Part shown: positions 47,697-64,000 of the stretch, in pieces
Position numbering within the stretch: the first letter of the stretch is position 1
Layout: each line of letters begins with the position of its first letter
Source: Nannocystales bacterium
GTDB lineage: Bacteria; Myxococcota_A; Polyangia; Nannocystales; Nannocystaceae
Reading direction: 5' to 3'
NCBI GenBank assembly: GCA_050633305.1
Contig: JBOEGF010000017.1
Coordinates: 78,433-142,432 of the forward strand
DNA length: 64,000 nt
Translations under genes and position numbers: made by a program
Notes under the pieces: model-generated
The model's database searches: none
What the model saw: the letters and a program-made list of their open reading frames with translations, nothing else
Told to the model about the DNA's origin: nothing

Positions 47697-50456
47697 TCAG
47701 TCTTTGACTTGGCCCGGGAACAGGGGCGGCGCGGCTTTGGCGAACGCCTGCCGGAGGTTCTTCTTGGTGAAGATCCCAGTCCTCAGGAGTGACTCCCCCG
47801 GGCTCTCCTGCGGCTTCACCTTGCCGCCGGAGCCCACCTTGAACGCCGCCTTGGGGGAGCGGTCCCCCGGGGTGCTTGCGACCACCACCCAGTCGAATCC
47901 TCCCTTGCCGTCGCTGTCGTAAAACGTCCAGCGAACGTCGGCGACTTTGAGCATGGCGAACTCCGCGTCGAACTTCCCTGCCCGGACCTGCTTGGCCAGG
48001 TCCTGGTGGTTGACGCCTTCGGCCGCGCTGTCGCCGTCGAGATCGATGAGCACCAGGTCACGGCCGTACTCGGTCACCATGGCCACAGCGTTGCGCAGCC
48101 CGCCCGAGTCGCGAATCGCCACGCTCGCACGCGGCCCGAAGCTGAGCGCAGGAAAGCTGTCAATACCCACGCCCGACTGCGCGGTCGTCCCCGGCATCGC
48201 CTTGGAGACCGCAGTCGCAAAGCGAGTCCGCGCGTCTTCGGCAGACAAGAGGTCCTGGCGCAACAACGCACGCCCCAGCTGCTCAGTCGCCGGGGCTCCA
48301 GAGACCCAAGCCTCGCTGGTCCCGGTGAATCCCAGCACGTTGGTGTGCAGGATCGTCTCCAACGTGCCGTCGTCGTCTGCGTCGTACCAAGCCCAGCGCG
48401 ACGCGCCCTGCTCGAGGACGACCACCTCGATGTCCGCACTGCCAACCTTGCGCGCCATCTCAAAGCCACTGGAGACCCCCGCGTTTTGGTCGAGGTCGAA
48501 CAGGTACCGGCGGTGGAAGTACGTCGACTCGATGAACGTATCGAGGGTGCCATCCCCGTCGTGGTCCGAAGCGAGCAACGACTCTGCCGATGCCTTGGGA
48601 TCGGGAATGATGACCTCGCCATCGCCAGACTCGGCAGCGCCGGGAAACACGACGGACGCCACGCGGCCATAGCGTTCCTTGAGCTTGGCATCGACGAACA
48701 GTTCACCGTCGAGTCCATCGCGAACGAGCTTGTCCGGGCTCGCAGTGGCACCGCCGTCCTTGGGCACGGTGTACGCAGTCGTGATGTTGCCGATCGTGCC
48801 CAGCATGAACACGTCGTGGTGACCGTCGTTGTCGGTGTCGTACCAAACGTTGCGGTTTCCACCTTGGTCCAGCACCACCAGCTCAGCATCGAACGGGCGG
48901 TCATCCTTGGCGCTGAGGTCGTCCCAGCTGGGCAGTGGCTTGGCCTTCCCCAGCGAGTTCTGGTCGAGGTCGAAGTAGTACGCCGTGCTGCTTCCTACAC
49001 CCGGACCCGCCGCCACCACCGTCTCGATTCGGCCATCGAGGTCGACGTCTCCACCATGCACATTGACCGCCGCGACGTCCCACGGGTCGGGGATGAAATC
49101 CAGCGGGTGCTCGGGGACCTCCTCGAGCAGCACCTTCACCTCGGCCAAGTGCACGTGGAAGCTCAGCCACTGGTTGGTGGTCATGTCCCGCCGGACAAAC
49201 GCGTTGACGGCCACAATCTCTCCGGCCGTGTTCACCAGCGGCCCGCCGCTGTCGCCGGGGAGAATCTTGGCGGTCGATTGGACCACCCGCCCCTGCTTGT
49301 CCATCTGCGCCTTCCGCTTGGCGAGCTGTTCCTTCTGATAGCCGGAGGCACCGTCGAGCGCGAGGTCGGTATGCCCGGCGAGCTTGCCCGTGCTCGACAC
49401 CTCTCCTCCCTTGAGCGCCCACAGCAGCCCTGCGCCCGCGTGCCCAACCGCAGCGACCCGTTGGCCAGGATACGGCGCCTTCTCGCTGATCTCCAACGAC
49501 GGCAGGTCGGCAGGCGGGTCGATGAGTTGCAGCAACGCGAGGTCGTGGTCGATGTCGACCTCCAACACGTAGGCGTGCTGGGTCTTTTCTTGCGGCTCGA
49601 ACGCCTGCAACTCCTCCGAGTAGGTCCCAAGGGTCACGTCCGCCTTGATACGCAGCCCTTCCCGCTCCCCACCTTCGATGACGTGGTGGTTGGTGAGGAT
49701 GATGCCCTTGGGGTCGATGATCGAGCCGGACCCCACGCTTCCAGGGACGCGAATGACCACGGTCGCGGCTCCGACCTGCCGATACAGCTCGCCCATGTCC
49801 TTCTCGACCACCGGCTCGTCCTCATCGGGATCCTTCTCGTCCGGGACCGGTGGCGGGATGTCGAGTTTGGGTGCATCGACGACCTCGGGCGTCTTGTCCC
49901 CGCCATCGTCCGACTCGCCTTCGTCCTCGTTGTTGGCGACCACGGTCTCCGTCTCGTCGGTGCCGCCCAACAGGAAGTACGCGCCCGCGGCCCCACCACC
50001 GAGGACCAGCACGCCCGCGACCGCAGCGATGGCAACGCCGGCCCCCGACTTCTTCCGCTCCGCTGGCGCGGCCTCCATCGCAGCCTTCTGCCGTTGGAAG
50101 TCCGCCATGAGTGCCGCGCCGTCACCCATCACCGTGCCACCGGCGGCCTGATGCATCGCGCCGACGATCTGAACGACTTTGATCACCGTCTTCCCGCACG
50201 TGAACGCCTCACCGGCACTCATCGCGAACTGCGGGAGGTTGCGGCCTTCTTTCCAGGTGCCGTTGCTGCTGCCTAGATCTCGCACCACCAGCTGGCCGTT
50301 TTGGAACTCCAGCTCGGCGTGAGTGGCCGACGCCTCCGTGTCGGCGAGCACGATCTCGCCGGCATCACGACCCACGACGACACGTGCGGCTGAGAAGGAC
50401 AGCGTGGCCGCAGGGCGGCCGACATAGTTGATCTCGAGGATGTAGTGGGGCTCCAC
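47697..50456 (-). CDS. FHA domain + TM + trypsin-like serine protease + acidic repeat protein
   Basis: FHA VVGRD...SATHA...DLGSSNGT; TM; triad TNHHVI, DHDLALL, PGDSGGPL; repeated YDxDxDG motifs. Confidence 0.88.
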   Translation of the reverse strand: MEPHYILEINYVGRPAATLSFSAARVVVGRDAGEIVLADTEASATHAELEFQNGQLVVRDLGSSNGTWKEGRNLPQFAMSAGEAFTCGKTVIKVVQIVGAMHQAAGGTVMGDGAALMADFQRQKAAMEAAPAERKKSGAGVAIAAVAGVLVLGGGAAGAYFLLGGTDETETVVANNEDEGESDDGGDKTPEVVDAPKLDIPPPVPDEKDPDEDEPVVEKDMGELYRQVGAATVVIRVPGSVGSGSIIDPKGIILTNHHVIEGGEREGLRIKADVTLGTYSEELQAFEPQEKTQHAYVLEVDIDHDLALLQLIDPPADLPSLEISEKAPYPGQRVAAVGHAGAGLLWALKGGEVSSTGKLAGHTDLALDGASGYQKEQLAKRKAQMDKQGRVVQSTAKILPGDSGGPLVNTAGEIVAVNAFVRRDMTTNQWLSFHVHLAEVKVLLEEVPEHPLDFIPDPWDVAAVNVHGGDVDLDGRIETVVAAGPGVGSSTAYYFDLDQNSLGKAKPLPSWDDLSAKDDRPFDAELVVLDQGGNRNVWYDTDNDGHHDVFMLGTIGNITTAYTVPKDGGATASPDKLVRDGLDGELFVDAKLKERYGRVASVVFPGAAESGDGEVIIPDPKASAESLLASDHDGDGTLDTFIESTYFHRRYLFDLDQNAGVSSGFEMARKVGSADIEVVVLEQGASRWAWYDADDDGTLETILHTNVLGFTGTSEAWVSGAPATEQLGRALLRQDLLSAEDARTRFATAVSKAMPGTTAQSGVGIDSFPALSFGPRASVAIRDSGGLRNAVAMVTEYGRDLVLIDLDGDSAAEGVNHQDLAKQVRAGKFDAEFAMLKVADVRWTFYDSDGKGGFDWVVVASTPGDRSPKAAFKVGSGGKVKPQESPGESLLRTGIFTKKNLRQAFAKAAPPLFPGQVKD

Positions 50457-50621
50457 GGCTCGGCTCCAGCGCGGGGTGCGGACCGCGCGCCCCACCACGG
50501 TACCAGCATCAGTGACGCATCGAGCGTTCCCAATCTGAACCGGGGATCTCCTGCCCACTGCGACCCCGCGGACCACCCGCGGCAGGATCAACGCCCTCCC
50601 CCGAATCAGCGCTCACTACAA

Positions 50622-55678: not shown

Positions 55679-56902
55679 TCACAGCAGCGCCCCGGCGACA
55701 CACGCAGAGGAGAAGTTGGCGAGGGTCGCCGCGAGCAGGGCTCGAACACCGAGCCGGGCGATGTCGTGTTTGCGTTCGGGGACCAAGCCTCCGAGGCCAC
55801 CGATCAGAATCCCGATGCTGGAGACGTTGGCAAACCCGGTGATCGCGAAGGTGGCGATGGACTGGCTCCGCGTGGACAGCGAACCCGAGACCTCGCGAAG
55901 CACGTCGAAGGCCACCAGTTCGTTGACCACCGTACGGGTTCCGAGAACCTTGCCGACCTCGAACGCCTCTTCGTACGGAACGCCCATCAGGAACGCGAGC
56001 GGCATGAACAGCCACCCAAACACACGCTCCAAGGTCAACGGAGCCCCACCGACGCTGAAGACCTCGAGGAAGGCGTTGCACAGCGCCACCAAGGCGATGA
56101 AGGCGATCAACATCGCGCCGACGTTGAGCGCAAGCTTCATGCCCTCGCTCGCGCCGCTGGACGCAGCGTCGAGGAGGTTGGCGTCGGTCTGCGGGATGTC
56201 GACGTCGACCTTGCCCGCGGTCAGGGGCGTCTGCGACTCGGGGACGACCAGCTTGGCCATCACCACCGAGATCGGTGCGGTCATCGCAACCGCCGTCAGC
56301 AGGTTCTCGATGGGGATCTTCCCAATCGAAACGTAGGCACCAAGAATCGCACCAGACACCGATGCCATCCCGGCGACCATGACCAAGAAGAGCTCGCTCT
56401 CGGTGAGCTTCGCAAGGAACGGGCGGATCGTGAGCGGGGCCTCGGTCTGCCCCATGAAGATCGACGCGCCCACCGCCAGAGACTCGGCGCCGCTGGTCCC
56501 CATCGTCCGCACCATCACCCACGCGAGCCCGCGCACGATGATCTGCATGACCCCGAGGTAGTAGAGGATGGAGAACAGCGAGGCGACGAACACGATGGTG
56601 GGCAGGATCTGAAACGCGAAGATCACTCCGAGGTTGGTCTCCCCTCCCCCTTGAGCCCCGAGCCCGCCAAAGACAAAGGCCGAGCCTTCGTAGGACTTTT
56701 GCAGGACTGTCGTCACGCCCTCCGACGCGGTCTCGAGGACCGCTCGTCCTGCCGCGACGCGTAACAGCAGCAGTCCGATGAGCCACTGCGCTGCGACGCC
56801 CCACAACACCGCACGCTTCGAGATGGCCTTTCGGTCGCGGCAGGCGGCAAAGGCCAGCCCGAGCATGACCATCGCGCCGCCGACCGAAACCAGTCGCTCC
56901 AT
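55679..56902 (-). CDS. nupC: Concentrative nucleoside transporter (CNT/NupC)
   Basis: FAFQILPTIVF, SGAESL, IFMGQTEAPL, GMASVSG, NELVAF, GFANVSSIGI. Confidence 0.95.
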   Translation of the reverse strand: MERLVSVGGAMVMLGLAFAACRDRKAISKRAVLWGVAAQWLIGLLLLRVAAGRAVLETASEGVTTVLQKSYEGSAFVFGGLGAQGGGETNLGVIFAFQILPTIVFVASLFSILYYLGVMQIIVRGLAWVMVRTMGTSGAESLAVGASIFMGQTEAPLTIRPFLAKLTESELFLVMVAGMASVSGAILGAYVSIGKIPIENLLTAVAMTAPISVVMAKLVVPESQTPLTAGKVDVDIPQTDANLLDAASSGASEGMKLALNVGAMLIAFIALVALCNAFLEVFSVGGAPLTLERVFGWLFMPLAFLMGVPYEEAFEVGKVLGTRTVVNELVAFDVLREVSGSLSTRSQSIATFAITGFANVSSIGILIGGLGGLVPERKHDIARLGVRALLAATLANFSSACVAGALL

Positions 56903-57954
56903 CAGGTGGCCTCGACTTCGTCAGAGAACCCGGACAGCTCGTCACCAATCGTCTCGAGAAATCGCCGTTTCTCGTGGAAAGGGAGGAAGGCCGACTTGAA
57001 CCCGTTCATGATGACCTGCTTGATGTCGTCCAACGAGAAGTCCATCTGCGCGTAGAGCAAGTGGAGTTCCTTGGACACCGTCGTGTCGGTGACCAAGCGG
57101 TTGTCGGTGTTGACCGTCACCCGGGCCCCGAGGTTGTAGTAGAGCTTCATCGGATGCGTGGGCAGGTCTTCGACCGCCCCCGTCTGCACGTTGGAAGACG
57201 GGCAGCACTCCAGCGGAATGCGGTGGTCGACCACGTAGTGCAGCAGGTCCCCGTCTTCGCGAAGCCGGCACCCGTGCCCCACCCGATGCGCGCCGCAGTC
57301 GTGGATGGCTTGGGCGATCGACGCGGGTCCGTAGGCTTCGCCCGCGTGAATCGTCACGTTGATGTTGTTCTTGCGCACCAGCTTGAACGCCTCGCTGTGC
57401 GCGACCGCCGGGTGGTCATGTTCGGCGCCCGCGAGATCGAAGCCCACCACGCCTCGGTTCTTGTAGGCGACCACAAGCTCCGCCATTTGCAGCGAGCTCT
57501 CCGGAGAAATGTTTCGGATGCCACAGAGGATGACGCGCGTGACCACCCCGTGTTCCAGCTCTGCGTCATGCGCGGCCGAAAGGACAGCCTCGACGATCTG
57601 GGTGAGGCGTAGGCCCTGACGCGTGTGCAGCATCGGGGCGTAGCGGACCTCCATGTAGCGGACGTTTTCCGCGGCCGCATCCGCGCACAGCTCGAACATG
57701 GCGCGGTAGATCGCGTCACGGGTTTGCAACACCCTCAGCGTGACGTCGAACGCCTTGAGATACTCCACCAAACTACCGGTGTTCTGTCCCAGCTTCATCG
57801 CGGCGCGCAGCCCGGCTTCGTCCTTGGCCGGCAATTCGACGTTTTGCTCCTGCGCGAGCTCGAGGAGCGTGGACAGGCGCATGGAGCCGTCCAGGTGGAC
57901 GTGCAGGTCCGTCTTGGGGAGCTTCTCGAACAGTTCTTCGGGCAGGGTCGCCAT
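56902..57954 (-). CDS. add: Adenosine deaminase
   Basis: PKTDLHVHLDGS, YMEVRYAP, GFDLAGAE, TIHAGE, RVGHG, CPSSN, NTDN. Confidence 0.95.
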   Translation of the reverse strand: MATLPEELFEKLPKTDLHVHLDGSMRLSTLLELAQEQNVELPAKDEAGLRAAMKLGQNTGSLVEYLKAFDVTLRVLQTRDAIYRAMFELCADAAAENVRYMEVRYAPMLHTRQGLRLTQIVEAVLSAAHDAELEHGVVTRVILCGIRNISPESSLQMAELVVAYKNRGVVGFDLAGAEHDHPAVAHSEAFKLVRKNNINVTIHAGEAYGPASIAQAIHDCGAHRVGHGCRLREDGDLLHYVVDHRIPLECCPSSNVQTGAVEDLPTHPMKLYYNLGARVTVNTDNRLVTDTTVSKELHLLYAQMDFSLDDIKQVIMNGFKSAFLPFHEKRRFLETIGDELSGFSDEVEAT

Positions 57955-58008
57955 GGTTGGCGGCCCACAGTAGCCGATCCGGCACCCATTGCCATAGACT
58001 CACAGGCC

Positions 58009-58728
58009 GTGAGCCGGGCAATGCGGACCGTGTGTGCTGGACTGGTGGTCATCGCCAGCGCCGGCTGTAGTCGTCCGCCGCTGGGGCAGTTCTGTCCCGA
58101 CGTCGCGGAGGGCGAGCTGGTCATCACCGAGATTCGCGGCCCGCAGACCGGCGGGGACAACCGCGGCCAGTGGTTCGAGGTCTACAACGCCTCGGATCGG
58201 GCCGTGGATCTGCGAGGGCTTCGCATCGAGCTGTACAACCTGCAAGGGGCTCTGGCTCCGCCGGCGCGGCCGATTCTCGTCCGGGGAGAGGACGTCGTCG
58301 TGCAGCCGGACGAATACGTGACGTTCGGACATCACGATCCGGCCGCCCTACCCGAGTTCGTCAACTACTCCTTCATCACGGACTACTTCACGAGCCCCAG
58401 CCTCAACGAAGACGAGGTGCTCGAGCTCTTGGACCTCGGCTTAGAGCCCGAGGATTTTGGCGGCCGCCAGCCCAAAGACCTCGAGCGTTCCGGACGGATC
58501 GACCTCGTGGCATGCGATGCCCTCATCGACCGCGTTCGCTACGAGGACCTGCCCAGGGAGGGAACGTTGAGCTTCGACGGCGCCCTGCGACCTGATGCTG
58601 TCGACAACGACGAACTCGAGAATTTCTGCACCAATGAGGCAGAGGAGGAGCTTGCCCCGGGCGAGCCCCGAAACTTCATCGGCCTGCCCGGAAGTCCACA
58701 GGAGGAGAACCCCGCATGCGAAGACTGA
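58009..58728 (+). CDS. Lamin tail domain (LTD) lipoprotein
   Basis: Lipobox IASAGC; GELVITEIRG, QWFEVYNASDRAVDLRG, GSPQEENPAC; start GTG 58009 or ATG 58021. Confidence 0.8.
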   Translation: MSRAMRTVCAGLVVIASAGCSRPPLGQFCPDVAEGELVITEIRGPQTGGDNRGQWFEVYNASDRAVDLRGLRIELYNLQGALAPPARPILVRGEDVVVQPDEYVTFGHHDPAALPEFVNYSFITDYFTSPSLNEDEVLELLDLGLEPEDFGGRQPKDLERSGRIDLVACDALIDRVRYEDLPREGTLSFDGALRPDAVDNDELENFCTNEAEEELAPGEPRNFIGLPGSPQEENPACED

Positions 58729-60011
58729 TCTCGACGGGGGTCCTGGGGCTCCTTCTGGGGCTCACGGCCAGCTGCGGCCGCACAACGGTCCATTACAGCC
58801 GCCAAGCCCTCGCCGATTCTCTCGGGACCCCGGATGCACAGGCTGAGGCGGGGCTGTCCCTCGGCGAATTCGCCCTCGCTCCAGGCGCCGTCGTCGATGG
58901 CGACACCCTCAAGGTCGTCGGGCTCGACGCCAGCTTGCGGCTTCTGGGCCTCGACACCGAGGAGACGTTCAAGTCCGAGAAGGACCGTCGCTTGTACGAA
59001 TCGCTCGGGTTCGAGGCCTACATGGCCAAGAAGGGCGAGGGATCCGACCGCCCAGCCAAATGCGCCACGCCGCTGGGCGACGACGCCAAGAAGTTCGCCC
59101 AGGCGTTCTTCGTTGGCGATATCAGCGTCAAGCTCGAACGCGACCATGCGAAGGACATGCGGGGCCGATTCGGACGCCTGCTCACCTACGTCTTCGTCAA
59201 GCGCGGCGACGAGTGGATCAACTACAACGTCGAGGCCGTACGCGCCGGCATGAGCCCCTACTTCACCAAGTACGGGTACTCGCGGCGCTTCCACGACGAG
59301 TTCGTCCAAGCTCAAAAAGAGGCTCGCGAGGCAGAGCGGGGGATCTGGGATCCCAGCCTCGAGCACTACCGAGACTACGACCGCCGGTTGGAGTGGTGGG
59401 ACGCGCGTGGAGACTTCATCGCCCGGTTCGAGGAAGACGCACAGGGACGCGAGGACATGATCATGCTCGGCCACTGGGACGCGCTCGAGCGGATCGCCGC
59501 GATGGAGGGCAAGGAGATCGAAGTGCTTGCCGGAGTCGGAGAGATCTACCCTGGAGAGGGCGCTCGTCCGACCCGCGTGATGCTCAGCAGGCGAATGTTC
59601 TCGGACTTCCCGCTGATTTTCTTCGATGAAGACGTGGTGTTGAGTTCCCGTATCGAGGAGGCGAAGGGCGAGTTCGCCAGAGTCCGCGGCACGGTCAGCG
59701 CCTACACGTACAAGTCGCGTCGGCGCCGTGACGACGAGGACCGCACCCAGCTTCAGATCGAGGTGAAGCTGTCACAGCAAGTGATCATCTCTGACACCGC
59801 GCCCGGGTCCCCGAGCCGTACCCTGCTCGAGCCAGCGCCCCAGCCCGAGGACGCGCCCGACCCCTACGAGGCCGCAGCGACGGCTCCTCCAGCGGCTCCG
59901 CCGGCTCCCGATGTCTCGGACACGCCTCCCGAGGAGCCAGCCTCAGACTCCCCCATCGAAGACCCCCCGCCGGCCCCGGAAGCCGGCCCCACAGGAGACC
60001 GACAGCCATGA
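58716..60011 (+). CDS. Thermonuclease (SNase-like) lipoprotein with C-terminal OB-fold-like domain
   Basis: Lipobox LTASC; VDGDT, LRLLGLDTEE, GRFGRLLTYV, EAREAERGIW; C-terminal ARVRGTVSAY; Pro-rich tail. Confidence 0.88.
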   Translation: MRRLISTGVLGLLLGLTASCGRTTVHYSRQALADSLGTPDAQAEAGLSLGEFALAPGAVVDGDTLKVVGLDASLRLLGLDTEETFKSEKDRRLYESLGFEAYMAKKGEGSDRPAKCATPLGDDAKKFAQAFFVGDISVKLERDHAKDMRGRFGRLLTYVFVKRGDEWINYNVEAVRAGMSPYFTKYGYSRRFHDEFVQAQKEAREAERGIWDPSLEHYRDYDRRLEWWDARGDFIARFEEDAQGREDMIMLGHWDALERIAAMEGKEIEVLAGVGEIYPGEGARPTRVMLSRRMFSDFPLIFFDEDVVLSSRIEEAKGEFARVRGTVSAYTYKSRRRRDDEDRTQLQIEVKLSQQVIISDTAPGSPSRTLLEPAPQPEDAPDPYEAAATAPPAAPPAPDVSDTPPEEPASDSPIEDPPPAPEAGPTGDRQP

Positions 60012-62263
60012 TCCGCCCTTGGACCGCCCAATCTCGCCGCCTCGCGGCTCTGTGTCTCCTCGCATCCGCGTCCGCCTGCGGGGACAGCTCCGGCCGTGGC
60101 GACGGACCCGGCGAATGCACCGCGAGTCTTCTCCCGGGCGACTTGGTGATCACCGAGGTGATGGCCAACCCCGACGGCGCAGACAAGGGCCTCGAATGGT
60201 TCGAGGTCTACAACGCGACGGACTCCGAGATCGACCTCTCGGGAGTGCTGTTGCGTTTTCGGAAGGTGGACGGAAGCGGGGAGAAGATCCATCAAGTCCA
60301 GGACACGGTGATCGGGCCGGGCGAATACCTCGTCTTCGGAGACGCCGATCCCGAGGCTCCGCCGGACCACGTTGACTACGGTTACGGGGATGAACTCGGC
60401 GCGAGCGGCCTCACCAACAGCGGAGGGGAGCTCTCCGTCGGATGCGGCAGCGCCATCATCGATATCGCCCTCTACGAAGAGAGCGATGACGCGATTGCCC
60501 GGGCCTTTGACGGCACACGGGAGCCCGACGCTGTCGGCAACGACGACCTCGGCGCCTGGTGTGACGCCACCACGGAATACGCGGAAGGGGCCCTCGGGAC
60601 CCCCGGCGCCGGAAACGATCCGTGTTTCTCGGAGCAACCGACGACGTGCAACCAGGACGGTGTCCCACGGGACATCCTGCCCCCAACCCCGGGCGACGTC
60701 GTCATCACCGAGTTCATGCCCAACCCCGATGCAGTCGGCGACGATGAGGGAGAGTGGTTCGAACTCTACATCGTCAACGATTTCGACCTCAACGGCCTGG
60801 CCCTCACAAAGCTCGGCGACGAGGAACCCACGGACATCATCGGATCGGTCGACTGCATGCCCGCGGGCGCCGGCACCTACTTGCTCTTTGCCCACTCTGC
60901 GGATGCGACGGTCAATGGCGGCCTCCCACCGGTCGACCACCTCTTCACCATGTCGATGTCCAACACCTCGGAGAACGGAACCGGCATCTCCGTAGGTTGG
61001 GGCGGTCAGTTCCTGGACTCCGTCACCTGGACCAATAGCGGCACCGGGGCCAGTAGTCAGCTCAACCCCATGCTGCTCGACCCCACCCGCAACGACGAAG
61101 AGGATGCATTCTGCCTCTCCGAGGAACCGTACGGGGACGGCGACCTCGGATCTCCAGGCGCCGCCAACCCACCGTGCCCAGTCGAAGCCCCGGAGGGCTC
61201 GTGTGCGGACGAAGACGGGGCTCTTCGCGACATCGTCGCGCCGTCGGTCGGAGACCTCTGGATCACCGAGTTCATGCCCGATCCGTCCGCAGTGGGCGAC
61301 CCCGACGGCGAGTGGTTCGAGGTCCACGCGAACGCTGCCTTTGACCTCAACGCGCTCGAGTTTGGCCGCGAGGACGACGTGGAAGAGACGATCGACCTCG
61401 ACTCCTGCGCCCCAGTCGCGGCTGGAGACCGGATTCTGTTCGCAAAGAACGCTGAAGCCGCGACCAACGGCGGCCTGCCGGCGGTCGACTACGAGCTTGG
61501 GTTGTCTCTGCTCAACAGCAACGGCCGGCTCTTCATCGCGGCCGACGGCGAGGTGCTCGATGTCGTGACGTGGAGCGGGACGACCGCTGGGGCTTCGCGC
61601 TCACTCGACCCGTCCGTCTCGGGTCCTGAAGCCAACGACGACGAGGCCAACTGGTGCGACGCCGAAGCGCCCTACGGAGACGGCGACTTCGGAACCCCCG
61701 CCGCCGAAAACCTCGCATGTGGTGGGACTCCGGCCGGCACGTGCGACGACGGCGGCAACATCCGCGACGTAGTCTCCCCCAGCGCCGGAGACCTGGTCAT
61801 CACCGAGTGGATGCCCAACCCGGACGCTGTCGGCGATACCGACGGGGAGTGGTTCGAGGTTCTCGTCACCGCGAACGTCGACCTCAACGGCCTGCAGCTC
61901 GGCGACGACCCCGAGAGCCCCGACACCACAATCTCCCCCACCGGGGACTGCATCGCCGTGTCCTCGGGTACCCGCGTCGTCTTCGCTCGCAATGCCGACG
62001 CACTCACCAACGGAGGGGTCGAGTCGGCGATCGAGGCAGGCTTCACGCTGGGCAACGGCGGCGGCGCCCTGTTCGTCGGCATCGGGGGGGAAGTCCTCGA
62101 CCAGATCTCGTACTCGGACTCGGCCGCGGGCAGCTCCACCAGCGTTGCGCCCGGCTCCGAGGACACCGTCGCCAACGACGATGAACTCAACCACTGCGAG
62201 TCGAACACCCCGTACGGCGATGGCGACAACGGCACGCCCGGGGCGGAGAACGCATGCGGGTAG
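60008..62263 (+). CDS. Lipoprotein with four tandem lamin tail domains
   Basis: Lipobox SASAC; four GDLVITExMxNP...EWFEV...GTPG units starting at 60137, 60692, 61250, 61787. Confidence 0.88.
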   Translation: MIRPWTAQSRRLAALCLLASASACGDSSGRGDGPGECTASLLPGDLVITEVMANPDGADKGLEWFEVYNATDSEIDLSGVLLRFRKVDGSGEKIHQVQDTVIGPGEYLVFGDADPEAPPDHVDYGYGDELGASGLTNSGGELSVGCGSAIIDIALYEESDDAIARAFDGTREPDAVGNDDLGAWCDATTEYAEGALGTPGAGNDPCFSEQPTTCNQDGVPRDILPPTPGDVVITEFMPNPDAVGDDEGEWFELYIVNDFDLNGLALTKLGDEEPTDIIGSVDCMPAGAGTYLLFAHSADATVNGGLPPVDHLFTMSMSNTSENGTGISVGWGGQFLDSVTWTNSGTGASSQLNPMLLDPTRNDEEDAFCLSEEPYGDGDLGSPGAANPPCPVEAPEGSCADEDGALRDIVAPSVGDLWITEFMPDPSAVGDPDGEWFEVHANAAFDLNALEFGREDDVEETIDLDSCAPVAAGDRILFAKNAEAATNGGLPAVDYELGLSLLNSNGRLFIAADGEVLDVVTWSGTTAGASRSLDPSVSGPEANDDEANWCDAEAPYGDGDFGTPAAENLACGGTPAGTCDDGGNIRDVVSPSAGDLVITEWMPNPDAVGDTDGEWFEVLVTANVDLNGLQLGDDPESPDTTISPTGDCIAVSSGTRVVFARNADALTNGGVESAIEAGFTLGNGGGALFVGIGGEVLDQISYSDSAAGSSTSVAPGSEDTVANDDELNHCESNTPYGDGDNGTPGAENACG

Positions 62264-62733
62264 CCTTCGCAGGCCTACTCCTTCTGACCATCGCCGGGTG
62301 CGACACCTCCGAGGGTTCCAGCTGTGGACCCACGCAGGCGGTCGTCGCACGGGTGATCGATGGGGACACGGTCGAGTTGGACGACGGCTCGCGCGTTCGC
62401 TACCTGATGATCGACACCCCGGAGAGCACACAGGGCAAAGACGACTGTTTCGGGACCGAGTCGACCGAGCTCAACCGGATGTTGGTCGAAGGCAAGACCG
62501 TGACCCTTCGCTACGACGCGGAATGCACCGACCGCTACGATCGGCTCCTGGCGTACATCGAGGTCGATGGGCGCGAGATCAACAGCTTGATGGTCGAGCG
62601 GGGTGCGGCCTGCGTGCTGCACATCCCGCCCAACGGTGAGGACCGCGTCGACGAGTTCGAAGCCCTCGAGGACGAGGCCCGCGATGCGATGGTCGGAGTC
62701 TGGGGCGCGTGTGAGGACGTAACTTGTGACTAA
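62254..62733 (+). CDS. Thermonuclease (SNase-like) lipoprotein
   Basis: Lipobox TIAGC; VIDGDT, VRYLMIDTPE, DRYDRLLAYI, EDEARDAMVGVW. Confidence 0.92.
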   Translation: MRVAFAGLLLLTIAGCDTSEGSSCGPTQAVVARVIDGDTVELDDGSRVRYLMIDTPESTQGKDDCFGTESTELNRMLVEGKTVTLRYDAECTDRYDRLLAYIEVDGREINSLMVERGAACVLHIPPNGEDRVDEFEALEDEARDAMVGVWGACEDVTCD

Positions 62734-64000
62734 GCGCCTTTTACCAGTCTTGGCGCTCGGCGCTGCCCTGCTGGGCTCTTCTGCGGCAGACGCCGCCCAG
62801 TACGAGGTGTTCGTCGACGTCGACGACGAAGAAGACCTCTATGACCTGCAGGTCGCAGGTGAGATCAGCAGTGGGACGTTCGAGATTCTCGTCGACCAAA
62901 TCCGGCGCGGGGTCGACCTCAACACCGCAACTCGCGAGCAGTTGTACGCGCTGCCGAACCTGACGTACGAGGAAGTCGACGCGATCCTGGCCTATCGTGA
63001 GGAAGCCGGCCGAATCGGCGACCCTGCGGCCCTCGTTCTTGCCGGAGCGCTCCCTCGGCGAAAGCTAGCTTCAATCGCTGCGTTTCTCCTGGTCCCCGCG
63101 CCCGAGGGAAGCAAAACCGGAGTTCGCGGACAGGTCCGCTACAGGACCGTATGGACCTCGGAAGACGACCGCGTCCCACCGATGCTCCTGCAGACGCGGG
63201 TCTCAATGCTCCGGCACCTGACGGTCGGCGCAGCCGCCGTGCTCGACCGCAACCGCCTCGAGAATGCGGTCTGGGACCCCAACCGTGACGCCCTGACAAC
63301 CAACGGACCCCGCACAACGGCCCGGGTCCCGAAATACTTCGCGCAATGGGACACCCCGAAATGGGGAATCATCGGCGGTACCTACAACATCGGGTTTGGT
63401 CAGAAGCTCGTCTTCGATACCACCGGTCGCTATACGCCGAACGGGTTCACCTACGACGACACGATGTACCGGCAGACCGACCTCACGACCGAATGCCGGT
63501 TGTCGACGGGCGAGCTCTCCGAAACACCGTGCCCCCGGGACCAACCTCAGACCTACGTCACCCCGGACTACCGCGAACGGGTCCGGCAACGCGGTGTTGC
63601 GGTGGGCGCCAAGCATATCGACATGCCGGTCGGGTGGATGCAGGCCTATGGTTTTTTCTCGCATCAGACCAAGCCCATCTACTGGACGGGCGTCTACAAC
63701 TCCGACACATGCGACGACCCGCGGCTCGCCTCCGACTTGTTCGACGTCTGTGCCGCTCCCCCGGTGTACTTGGGCACCGCCTCCGACTCGCTCACCCCAG
63801 CCCCAAGCCTTCGGTACGCTTCGCTGCCGAACATGTACAACGAGGTTCTGGGCGGGACGAACATCAGCTACTTCGTCGACCGCCGCACGCATGTGGGTGT
63901 GACGGGCTACGGCAGTGGCGTGACATGGCTGACCGAGGGCGCGAACCTCGACTTCCAAGAATGGCAGCGCACGCCCTACGGTGGCCCGTTCGGAGCAGCC
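62726..64000 (+). CDS. Secreted helix-hairpin-helix (ComEA-like) protein with probable beta-barrel region (3' truncated; not in ORF track)
   Basis: Hand translation from GTG 62726, 425 codons with no stop: MTKRLLPVLALGAALLGSSAADA signal; VDLNTATREQLYALPNLTYEEVDAILAYR; then GIIGGTYNIGFGQKLVF, QRGVAVG, QAYGFFS, LGGTNISYF, HVGVTGY. Confidence 0.82.
   Translation, partial: MTKRLLPVLALGAALLGSSAADAAQYEVFVDVDDEEDLYDLQVAGEISSGTFEILVDQIRRGVDLNTATREQLYALPNLTYEEVDAILAYREEAGRIGDPAALVLAGALPRRKLASIAAFLLVPAPEGSKTGVRGQVRYRTVWTSEDDRVPPMLLQTRVSMLRHLTVGAAAVLDRNRLENAVWDPNRDALTTNGPRTTARVPKYFAQWDTPKWGIIGGTYNIGFGQKLVFDTTGRYTPNGFTYDDTMYRQTDLTTECRLSTGELSETPCPRDQPQTYVTPDYRERVRQRGVAVGAKHIDMPVGWMQAYGFFSHQTKPIYWTGVYNSDTCDDPRLASDLFDVCAAPPVYLGTASDSLTPAPSLRYASLPNMYNEVLGGTNISYFVDRRTHVGVTGYGSGVTWLTEGANLDFQEWQRTPYGGPFGAA

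Follow-up and report, generated by a model that had tools for sequence, protein, structure and literature searches.

A five-gene operon of predicted exported proteins

The 64,000-nucleotide stretch of Nannocystales bacterium DNA analysed here (GCA_050633305.1, contig JBOEGF010000017.1, positions 78,433 to 142,432; 'the window') ends in a run of forward-strand genes for two lamin tail domain (LTD) proteins, two staphylococcal nuclease (SNase) domain proteins and a helix-hairpin-helix (HhH) protein with a predicted outer-membrane beta-barrel, set back to back with genes for adenosine deaminase and a nucleoside transporter. The window lies on contig C17 of an ~11-Mb genome, G000 (genomes, contigs, loci and families bear our labels G, C, L and f). 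A first-pass annotation, made from the letters of the sequence, had proposed that these genes form a surface apparatus that captures and degrades DNA and feeds nucleoside salvage. The features are as follows.

55679..56902, reverse strand: nupC, CNT-family nucleoside transporter, 407 aa (Pfam Nucleos_tra2 N, C and Gate; TIGR00804 E 7e-122, under the cut-off)
56902..57954, reverse strand: add, adenosine deaminase, 350 aa (PF00962 E 1e-94; TIGR01430 over the cut-off)
57989..58000, forward strand: conserved 12-base element in the 54-bp divergent gap, putative -10 region of the operon
58009..58728, forward strand: gene 1, acidic single-LTD lipoprotein, 235-239 aa (PF00932 E 2e-7, just under the cut-off)
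58716..60011, forward strand: gene 2, lipoprotein of 431 aa with an SNase domain (46-212), an oligonucleotide-binding (OB) fold (240-360) and a Pro/acidic tail
60008..62263, forward strand: gene 3, lipoprotein of 751 aa with four Cys-bracketed LTD repeats (PF00932 E 8e-25)
62254..62733, forward strand: gene 4, small SNase lipoprotein with paired cysteines, 159 aa (PF00565 E 2e-18)
62726..64000 and on to window-equivalent 64936, forward strand: gene 5, HhH plus beta-barrel, 736 aa, completed from the G000 contig

The five forward open reading frames (58009/58021-58728, 58716-60011, 60008-62263, 62254-62733 and 62726 to beyond 64000) overlap in succession by 13, 4, 10 and 8 bp, so that the co-directional, overlapping layout first proposed is confirmed by their coordinates; Pfam assigns them, from gene 1 to gene 5, to LTD, SNase, LTD, SNase and HHH_3, with add and NupC on the opposite strand. 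The 54-bp gap to the divergent add, also noted at first pass, is correct when measured from the GTG at 58009 and becomes 66 bp from the ATG at 58021, and the recovery of the downstream contig that had been recommended supplied the end of gene 5. Within the gap, the core 10-mer of the 57989-58000 element, of which the whole genome holds 9 copies, precedes gene 1 at 11 of the 15 loci where add is divergent and at 1 of 40 others; the element is probably the -10 region of the operon, and if its TAGACT serves as the -10 box, the transcript would begin close to the GTG 58009 and leave the first gene leaderless. A scan of the locus for sigma-70 promoters and terminators returned nothing above shuffled controls, and a look-up of RNA holders listed none here.

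Predicted exported nucleases and acidic LTD lipoproteins

Both SNase genes encode what appear, at the level of sequence and model, to be exported nucleases with full sets of Ca2+-binding and catalytic residues. They are members of the SNase family by Pfam matches over the cut-off, by an OB-type SNase fold, and by the presence of every catalytic equivalent. In gene 2, R75, D80, E83 and R154 are invariant across 74 aligned rows and D61/D63 occur in 83 of 86; in gene 4, aligned to the Staphylococcus aureus nuclease, D36, D38, R49, E57 and R97 are present in all 99 homologues, while D54 is retained in 89 and replaced by Asn in 10. These positions match what we take to be D19/D21, R35, D40, E43 and R87 in S. 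aureus numbering, and the intact catalytic pattern ascribed to both enzymes at first pass is thus borne out by alignment and conservation. Gene 2 has no sequence match in the PDB; in its structure model (predicted local distance difference test, pLDDT, 85), the SNase domain superposes on staphylococcal nuclease (Z 15.9, root-mean-square deviation (rmsd) 2.4), and the second domain matches OB folds of the MCM/RPA/HIN type (Z 8-10.7).

The signal peptides of these proteins end in a conserved Cys: C20 in gene 2 and C24 in gene 3 (at least 90% of 74 and 69 rows, respectively), and C16 in gene 4 (91 of 99 homologues). Four lipoboxes had been claimed for genes 1-4; read from the sequence against the lipobox consensus, the one in gene 4 is canonical and those in genes 1-3 are non-canonical.

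The LTD of gene 1 is most similar, at 30% identity, to the first repeat of gene 3; gene 1 appears to be an accessory, being undetected in several lineages, including the loci of genus g35. Gene 3 carries a net charge of -116, and its relatives have roughly 2-6 LTD repeats; the operons at L093, L095 and L096 hold two tandem copies of the multi-LTD gene. Because the LTD proteins are so strongly acidic, direct binding to DNA seems doubtful for them unless bridged by cations.

G000 encodes further exported LTD proteins at other sites, along with a third SNase, which is basic, and two double-PLD (phospholipase D-type) lipoproteins, one of them with HhH-like repeats (C24:60313-62409, C1:1537-3096, C10:272381-273004, C18:599293-600735 and C43:70603-72501).

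An outer-membrane barrel with a degenerate HhH domain

The surprising part of the module is its uncharacterised barrel. Gene 5 comprises a signal peptide, an acidic helical N-terminal subdomain, a degenerate (HhH)2 domain, and an outer-membrane beta-barrel of ~24 strands ending in Phe; the model (pLDDT 89, predicted template-modelling score 0.86; 24 strands counted from DSSP) gives the barrel long, disulfide-bonded outer loops. PF12836 is the one family on record for the full protein, NCBIfam adds a weak comEA match, and sequence matches in the PDB are confined to the HhH, leaving the barrel part with no solved sequence relative. A fold search returned nothing but barrels at 5-12% identity, the best being the usher FimD (Z 14.8, rmsd 5.0, 8% identity); TonB-dependent receptors appeared in it as general barrel matches only.

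Mean-field coupling analysis of 524 barrel homologues (effective number 346) recovers strand neighbours, places two long loops inside the barrel (V229-A443, R158-D245), and brings the N-terminal strand inside as well (V30-G476, rank 38; A23-G309, rank 52). The lumen-facing residues include on average 28 Lys/Arg and 19.5 Asp/Glu per barrel, with most Arg on strands 14-24. Loop placement and lumen charge are modest signals, obtained without an outside control. Complex prediction was limited to one pair, barrel residues 24-736 and the first gene 3 LTD (30-210), and gave a score of 0.00 twice, which is evidence neither for nor against contact.

The first-pass annotation had credited gene 5 with a signal peptide and a ComEA-like HhH, the HhH of ComEA being a binder of double-stranded DNA. 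Signal peptide and fold are both present: the N-domain is an (HhH)2 fold by PF12836 (over the cut-off) and by profile match to ComEA structures (E 4e-15), with EEPD1 also matched. DNA binding by this domain found no support. In Vibrio cholerae ComEA, the substitutions K63E, K62/63A, G60V and G60E abolish transformation, and K62/63A loses DNA binding in vitro (PMC3879209; this and the other papers are cited for the parts of their text available to us). Alignment maps ComEA G60, K62 and K63 onto T80, E82 and E83 of gene 5; at position 83, 1 of the 524 homologues has Lys, 4 have Arg and 355 have Asp or Glu, and at position 82, 10 have Lys and 11 have Arg. Gene 5 thus shares with ComEA (PMC3879209; PDB 8DSS) the (HhH)2 fold, the periplasmic side, and a structural Arg (R91, in 506 of 524), and differs from it in an NLT in place of the GIG hairpin, in E/E for K62/K63, and in its fusion to a barrel.

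Because the Gly and Lys with which ComEA binds DNA are missing here and acidic residues stand instead, a ComEA-type DNA-binding role is doubtful on sequence grounds; K113, which 258 of 524 homologues retain in the second hairpin, would leave room for some other mode of DNA binding. Over residues 26-60 the median net charge is -10 (100 rows), and the HhH presents a conserved R70/Y74/Y81/D85 face. The likeliest role of the HhH is that of a structural plug or docking domain, and not that of a DNA ratchet of the ComEA type; a separate, basic, canonical ComEA is encoded on contig C20 of G000.

Conservation across Myxococcota

The barrel occurs in 21 of 40 relatives, 19 of 23 within the family, and at each of the 19 loci fetched the small SNase gene lies next to it. 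Named homologues, 67-76% identical, belong to Nannocystaceae or to metagenome-assembled genomes of Myxococcota. Across a phylum sample of 301 genomes, 80 match the barrel, 3 of them weakly (G102, G220 and G068, E 2e-6 or weaker); with these scored as negative, 77 genomes carry the barrel and 224 do not. Cultured carriers include Nannocystis exedens, Plesiocystis pacifica, Enhygromyxa salina and Paraliomyxa miuraensis. Conservation of the neighbourhood across the phylum, the check proposed at first pass, came out in favour of clustering: 80 related loci were retrieved, and among the 66 with enough upstream DNA to be informative, 53 show the full five-gene order and 5 more lack only a detected gene 1. 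LTD and nuclease genes accompany the barrel in 74 of the 80 loci and in 20 of 20 close loci, and the five genes cluster far beyond chance. In metagenomes, 73 of 80 loci have an LTD or SNase gene, and 2 are cut at the start of the barrel.

Gene order varies in a set of 20 distant loci (barrel match E 1e-33 to 1e-62; the FastTree phylogeny of barrel loci gave long-branch warnings in the distant clades). An LTD neighbour is found by Pfam in 17 of them (L141, judged by eye, being an 18th), and a nuclease-type gene stands beside the barrel in 17: an SNase in 9, a PLD lipoprotein in 8, and a ComEC-type metallo-beta-lactamase (MBL) in 3. The PLD neighbours are single-domain lipoproteins with the Nuc-type motif, best matched by the NucT model (E 1.5e-16). 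At 9 distant loci the LTD protein has no lipobox and ends in a Cys, a hydrophobic helix and an Arg tail, the layout of the surface-sorting tag MYXO-CTERM (PMC11980579). Because unrelated nuclease folds and surface anchors interchange beside the same barrel, the module would act on nucleic acid at the cell surface; these swaps of nuclease fold and of LTD anchor are our strongest arguments for such a function.

Every one of the 26 genomes with a close barrel has a gene 2 homologue, as do 1 genome with a distant barrel and 15 that lack a barrel match. As nuclease and barrel each also occur alone, an obligate nuclease-barrel complex is not established, and the multi-lipoprotein assembly around an outer-membrane protein inferred at first pass is a hypothetical arrangement.

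Several clades add genes of their own. In family f28, an exported protein of ~1000 aa with LTD, two PLD and fn3 domains lies directly downstream of the barrel (L122:4932-7892, L124:4618-7677, L110:11232-14192) and is a candidate third nuclease. In family f25 (L261-L263, L265-L268), SNase-OB lipoproteins of the gene 2 type stand alone, away from any LTD or barrel gene, and come after an exported acidic protein, which in L267 has an OmpA-like C-terminus by eye. Kofleriaceae-like loci L074, L079, L080, L083, L085, L088, L117 and L125 have a Vut_1 gene (queuosine-precursor transporter family) 2-5 kb from the barrel, often with recA beyond.

Salvage and competence genes

Beyond gene 5 lie a convergent M15 peptidase gene, murG, an amidohydrolase gene and hpt; hpt is assigned over the cut-off, and the amidohydrolase is closest to 5'-deoxyadenosine deaminase (E 3e-125, under the cut-off). 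The last two genes overlap, 3-5 kb downstream of the barrel (L001:12199-14078; G000:C17, window-equivalent 67766-69645), and they lie near the operon in several Nannocystaceae. The only nupC and the only hpt of G000, together with its best add and amidohydrolase matches, all fall within 5 kb of the operon. A salvage gene is linked in 31 of 80 genome loci and in 27 of 48 loci of at least 20 kb, compared with ~1% of such windows in G000, counts in which related loci are not independent. The set differs by clade (add/nupC/hpt; nupC/tdk/upp; nupC downstream; hpt and an upp-like gene in family f36), and in f36 the same pair adjoins two different barrel subfamilies. In the Nannocystis loci L047, L069, L071, L073, L075-L078 and L092, a 2-oxoglutarate-Fe(II) dioxygenase gene, whose product is possibly a nucleoside- or base-modifying enzyme, comes right after nupC. 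An unlinked lipoprotein nucleotidase, closest to NadN, is encoded on C8 of G000.

G000 has comEC, dprA, comM, a comF-like gene and the canonical comEA on other contigs. A tblastn search of 120 loci for comEC, dprA, comM and comF (E 1e-5, with the genes of G000 as single queries, so that distant copies could escape) found no match. The comEC reading frame of G000 (L169; G000:C18:696541-698430) is 630 aa long, with no clear C-terminal MBL domain by eye. Upstream in the window, at 47697-50591 on the reverse strand, a large protein with FHA and trypsin-like protease domains and acidic repeats was read from the sequence.

Comparison with known systems

The first-pass annotation knew of no description of such a system. 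DNA-utilisation loci resembling polysaccharide utilisation loci are in print, namely ddbABCDEF of Bacteroidales (PMC12478041), to which a Riemerella locus is related (PMC8459023), and the DNA-degradation loci of Ca. Izemoplasmatales, which encode an LTD-nuclease protein (PMC8289736); for the architecture found here we located no account in what was mainly openly readable literature, and a term search of the available part of 10.1101/2023.06.07.544157 returned neither lamin nor nuclease. Like ddb, the module clusters exported lipoprotein nucleases with the gene of an outer-membrane transporter (transport being predicted here) and shares with it the downstream deamination of bases (PMC12478041). 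DdbD resembles p202 (PDB 4JBM), an OB/HIN-like structure (PMC12478041) that also matches the second domain of gene 2 (Z 8.1). The ddb locus differs in its TonB-dependent transporter DdbC and the DUF5689 protein DdbD (PMC12478041), and no ddb component, DUF5689 included, has a match among the five operon genes, which instead combine a ~24-strand barrel bearing an HhH N-domain with SNase, PLD or MBL nucleases and core multi-LTD proteins. Since its channel is no TonB-dependent receptor, the module falls outside the ddb family: it is a new, non-TonB architecture among DNA-utilisation loci, which as such are already known.

The Izemoplasmatales loci and the ExeM-type nucleases of Shewanella and Vibrio likewise combine nuclease domains with LTD and OB domains for digesting extracellular DNA, and cluster with transporters (PMC8289736, PMC6085458); in ExeM, the LTD is needed for full activity in vitro, and its loss slows degradation (PMC6085458). 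Those systems fuse the domains into a single protein (with an EEP nuclease in ExeM), and the available text describes no dedicated outer-membrane barrel (PMC8289736, PMC6085458), whereas here separate lipoproteins are tied to a barrel gene. Helicobacter pylori, with NucT, a NupC homologue and adenosine deaminase, also uses an outer-membrane PLD-family nuclease to feed purine salvage (PMC13328217); the part of that paper at hand describes no LTD proteins or dedicated barrel, and H. pylori relies on salvage, unlike G000. The chaperone-usher pores FimD and PapC have 24-strand barrels of similar size (Z 14.8 and 14.3), from which gene 5 departs at 8-10% identity, rmsd 5, and it does not match any usher family; neither chaperone nor pilin genes turned up among the five operon genes or 108 scanned neighbour representatives.

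Proposed function and alternatives

We consider it fairly probable that the module harvests nucleic acids at the cell surface for nutrient scavenging. The two nucleases would sit at the surface and cut extracellular DNA or RNA, such as that of lysed prey or of sediment, into short pieces bearing the 3'-phosphate that is the product of staphylococcal nuclease chemistry. The LTD repeats, by this proposal, would act as surface-anchored spacers or cofactors that position or assist the nucleases, and not as direct DNA binders. The barrel, its lumen Arg-rich on one side and narrowed by the in-folded loops and the acidic N-terminus, would pass the pieces to the periplasm without TonB, where the unlinked nucleotidase may strip their phosphate. 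In Nannocystaceae, the flanking NupC, adenosine deaminase, hypoxanthine phosphoribosyltransferase, thymidine kinase or uracil phosphoribosyltransferase could then recycle the nucleosides; lineages without a linked nupC would need other inner-membrane carriers.

A more specific model of the barrel, possible but doubtful in our judgement, makes gene 5 a TonB-independent 24-strand nucleic-acid channel in which an acidic, DNA-mimicking, HhH-derived plug is displaced by oligonucleotides from an Arg-lined wall, and which interchangeable surface nucleases on LTD stalks feed. If true, gene 5 would give DNA a third way through the Gram-negative outer membrane, beside pilus secretins and the TonB-dependent DdbC.

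Several observations weigh against nutrient harvesting as proposed. Arg-rich lumens are common in porins of high-GC organisms. In two phylum sets a salvage gene accompanies the barrel at just 3 of 20 and 1 of 20 loci; none is found at loci of the Plesiocystis/Enhygromyxa clade, nor is nupC in f36 (0 of 14) or f19 (0 of 5). A genome-level co-occurrence of nupC with the barrel was rejected, nupC being present in 38 of 77 barrel genomes and in 179 of 224 others. The link to nucleoside salvage drawn at first pass accordingly stands in Nannocystaceae, where nupC, add and hpt flank the operon, and fails as a general rule; the nupC/add linkage is mostly specific to that family. G000 has purH and purM and therefore does not depend on salvage, and the linked system includes no 3'-nucleotidase. 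Several Kofleriaceae-like loci have the barrel gene inverted or set apart from the nuclease genes. TIGR03901, the MYXO-CTERM model, lists 2 of the 9 tailed LTD proteins, both under the cut-off (best 16.6 of 20 bits). Homologues of gene 2 in barrel-less genomes have no LTD or barrel nearby at 12 of 13 loci fetched. Finally, five metagenome loci of one clade (L177, L188, L205, L219, L248) keep the barrel among other neighbours with no LTD or nuclease gene.

In that clade a gene of 61-76 aa ending in Gly-Gly, presumably ThiS/MoaD-like, precedes the barrel, as does, at L219 and L248, a protein of 1180-1381 aa with HEAT repeats and glycine-rich membrane repeats. A spread beyond the phylum is suggested by Atlas leads only, which are look-alikes of the barrel in Bacteroidota, Spirochaetota and Cloacimonadota.

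The barrel could instead serve as a translocon or anchor for surface display of the LTD and nuclease lipoproteins, in a module that clears or remodels extracellular DNA (in swarming, biofilm matrix or access to prey) with nutrition secondary, via general porins. Its best fold matches, the 24-strand ushers FimD and PapC, export Ig-like subunits, and LTDs are Ig-like; its HhH lacks the DNA-contact residues while keeping a face suited to a protein partner; an LTD protein is its most constant neighbour; and the salvage linkage is patchy. We nonetheless hold display to be unlikely: the usher likeness exists at the level of fold only and is tied with that of unrelated barrels, no chaperone or pilin gene recurs nearby, loci whose LTD protein bears a MYXO-CTERM-like tail, and with it a surface route of its own, still retain the barrel, and G284 has nuclease and LTD without a barrel match. 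Entry of viral or plasmid DNA offers another setting, in which the module would defend the envelope, or else have nothing to do with external nucleic acid, the salvage genes being merely inherited neighbours. Both SNases match the PADLOC 'SNc+LTD' model, PLD neighbours match DrmC models, and one barrel clade has unrelated neighbours; yet the PADLOC matches are limited to the nuclease domains, the proteins are exported, the locus is single-copy and stable among housekeeping genes, outside defence islands, and searches for barrel relatives came up empty in viral contigs and, using a distant member as the query, in plasmids, so that we rate this as very improbable.

Natural transformation by a pilus-independent route, with the nucleases fragmenting DNA and the barrel passing long pieces to ComEA and ComEC, is suggested by the homology of the gene 5 HhH to ComEA, by the competence genes of G000, and by the distant loci, where, beside the 3 of 20 with a ComEC-type MBL, 1 of 20 has a double-HhH ComEA-like gene and 3 more have ComEA ~6 kb away. 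Both SNases also weakly match the model of EcnA, which has a role in archaeal transformation, and the ddb locus is related to the Riemerella locus, a transformation locus (PMC12478041, PMC8459023). We think it quite improbable all the same: none of the four competence genes sought was found across the 120 loci, two processive, sugar-nonspecific nucleases would presumably destroy transforming DNA, the DNA-binding residues of ComEA are missing from gene 5, and the flanking genes are those of salvage.

Nucleic-acid harvesting, the reading we prefer, would bear on organisms that are major predators and polymer degraders of soil, sediment and sludge and whose use of prey nucleic acids is little described. 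It would offer a candidate function for the stand-alone multi-LTD surface proteins, a domain class whose bacterial role is given as unknown in the available text of PMC6085458, and likewise for a widespread family of 'HhH domain-containing' barrels without a solved relative.

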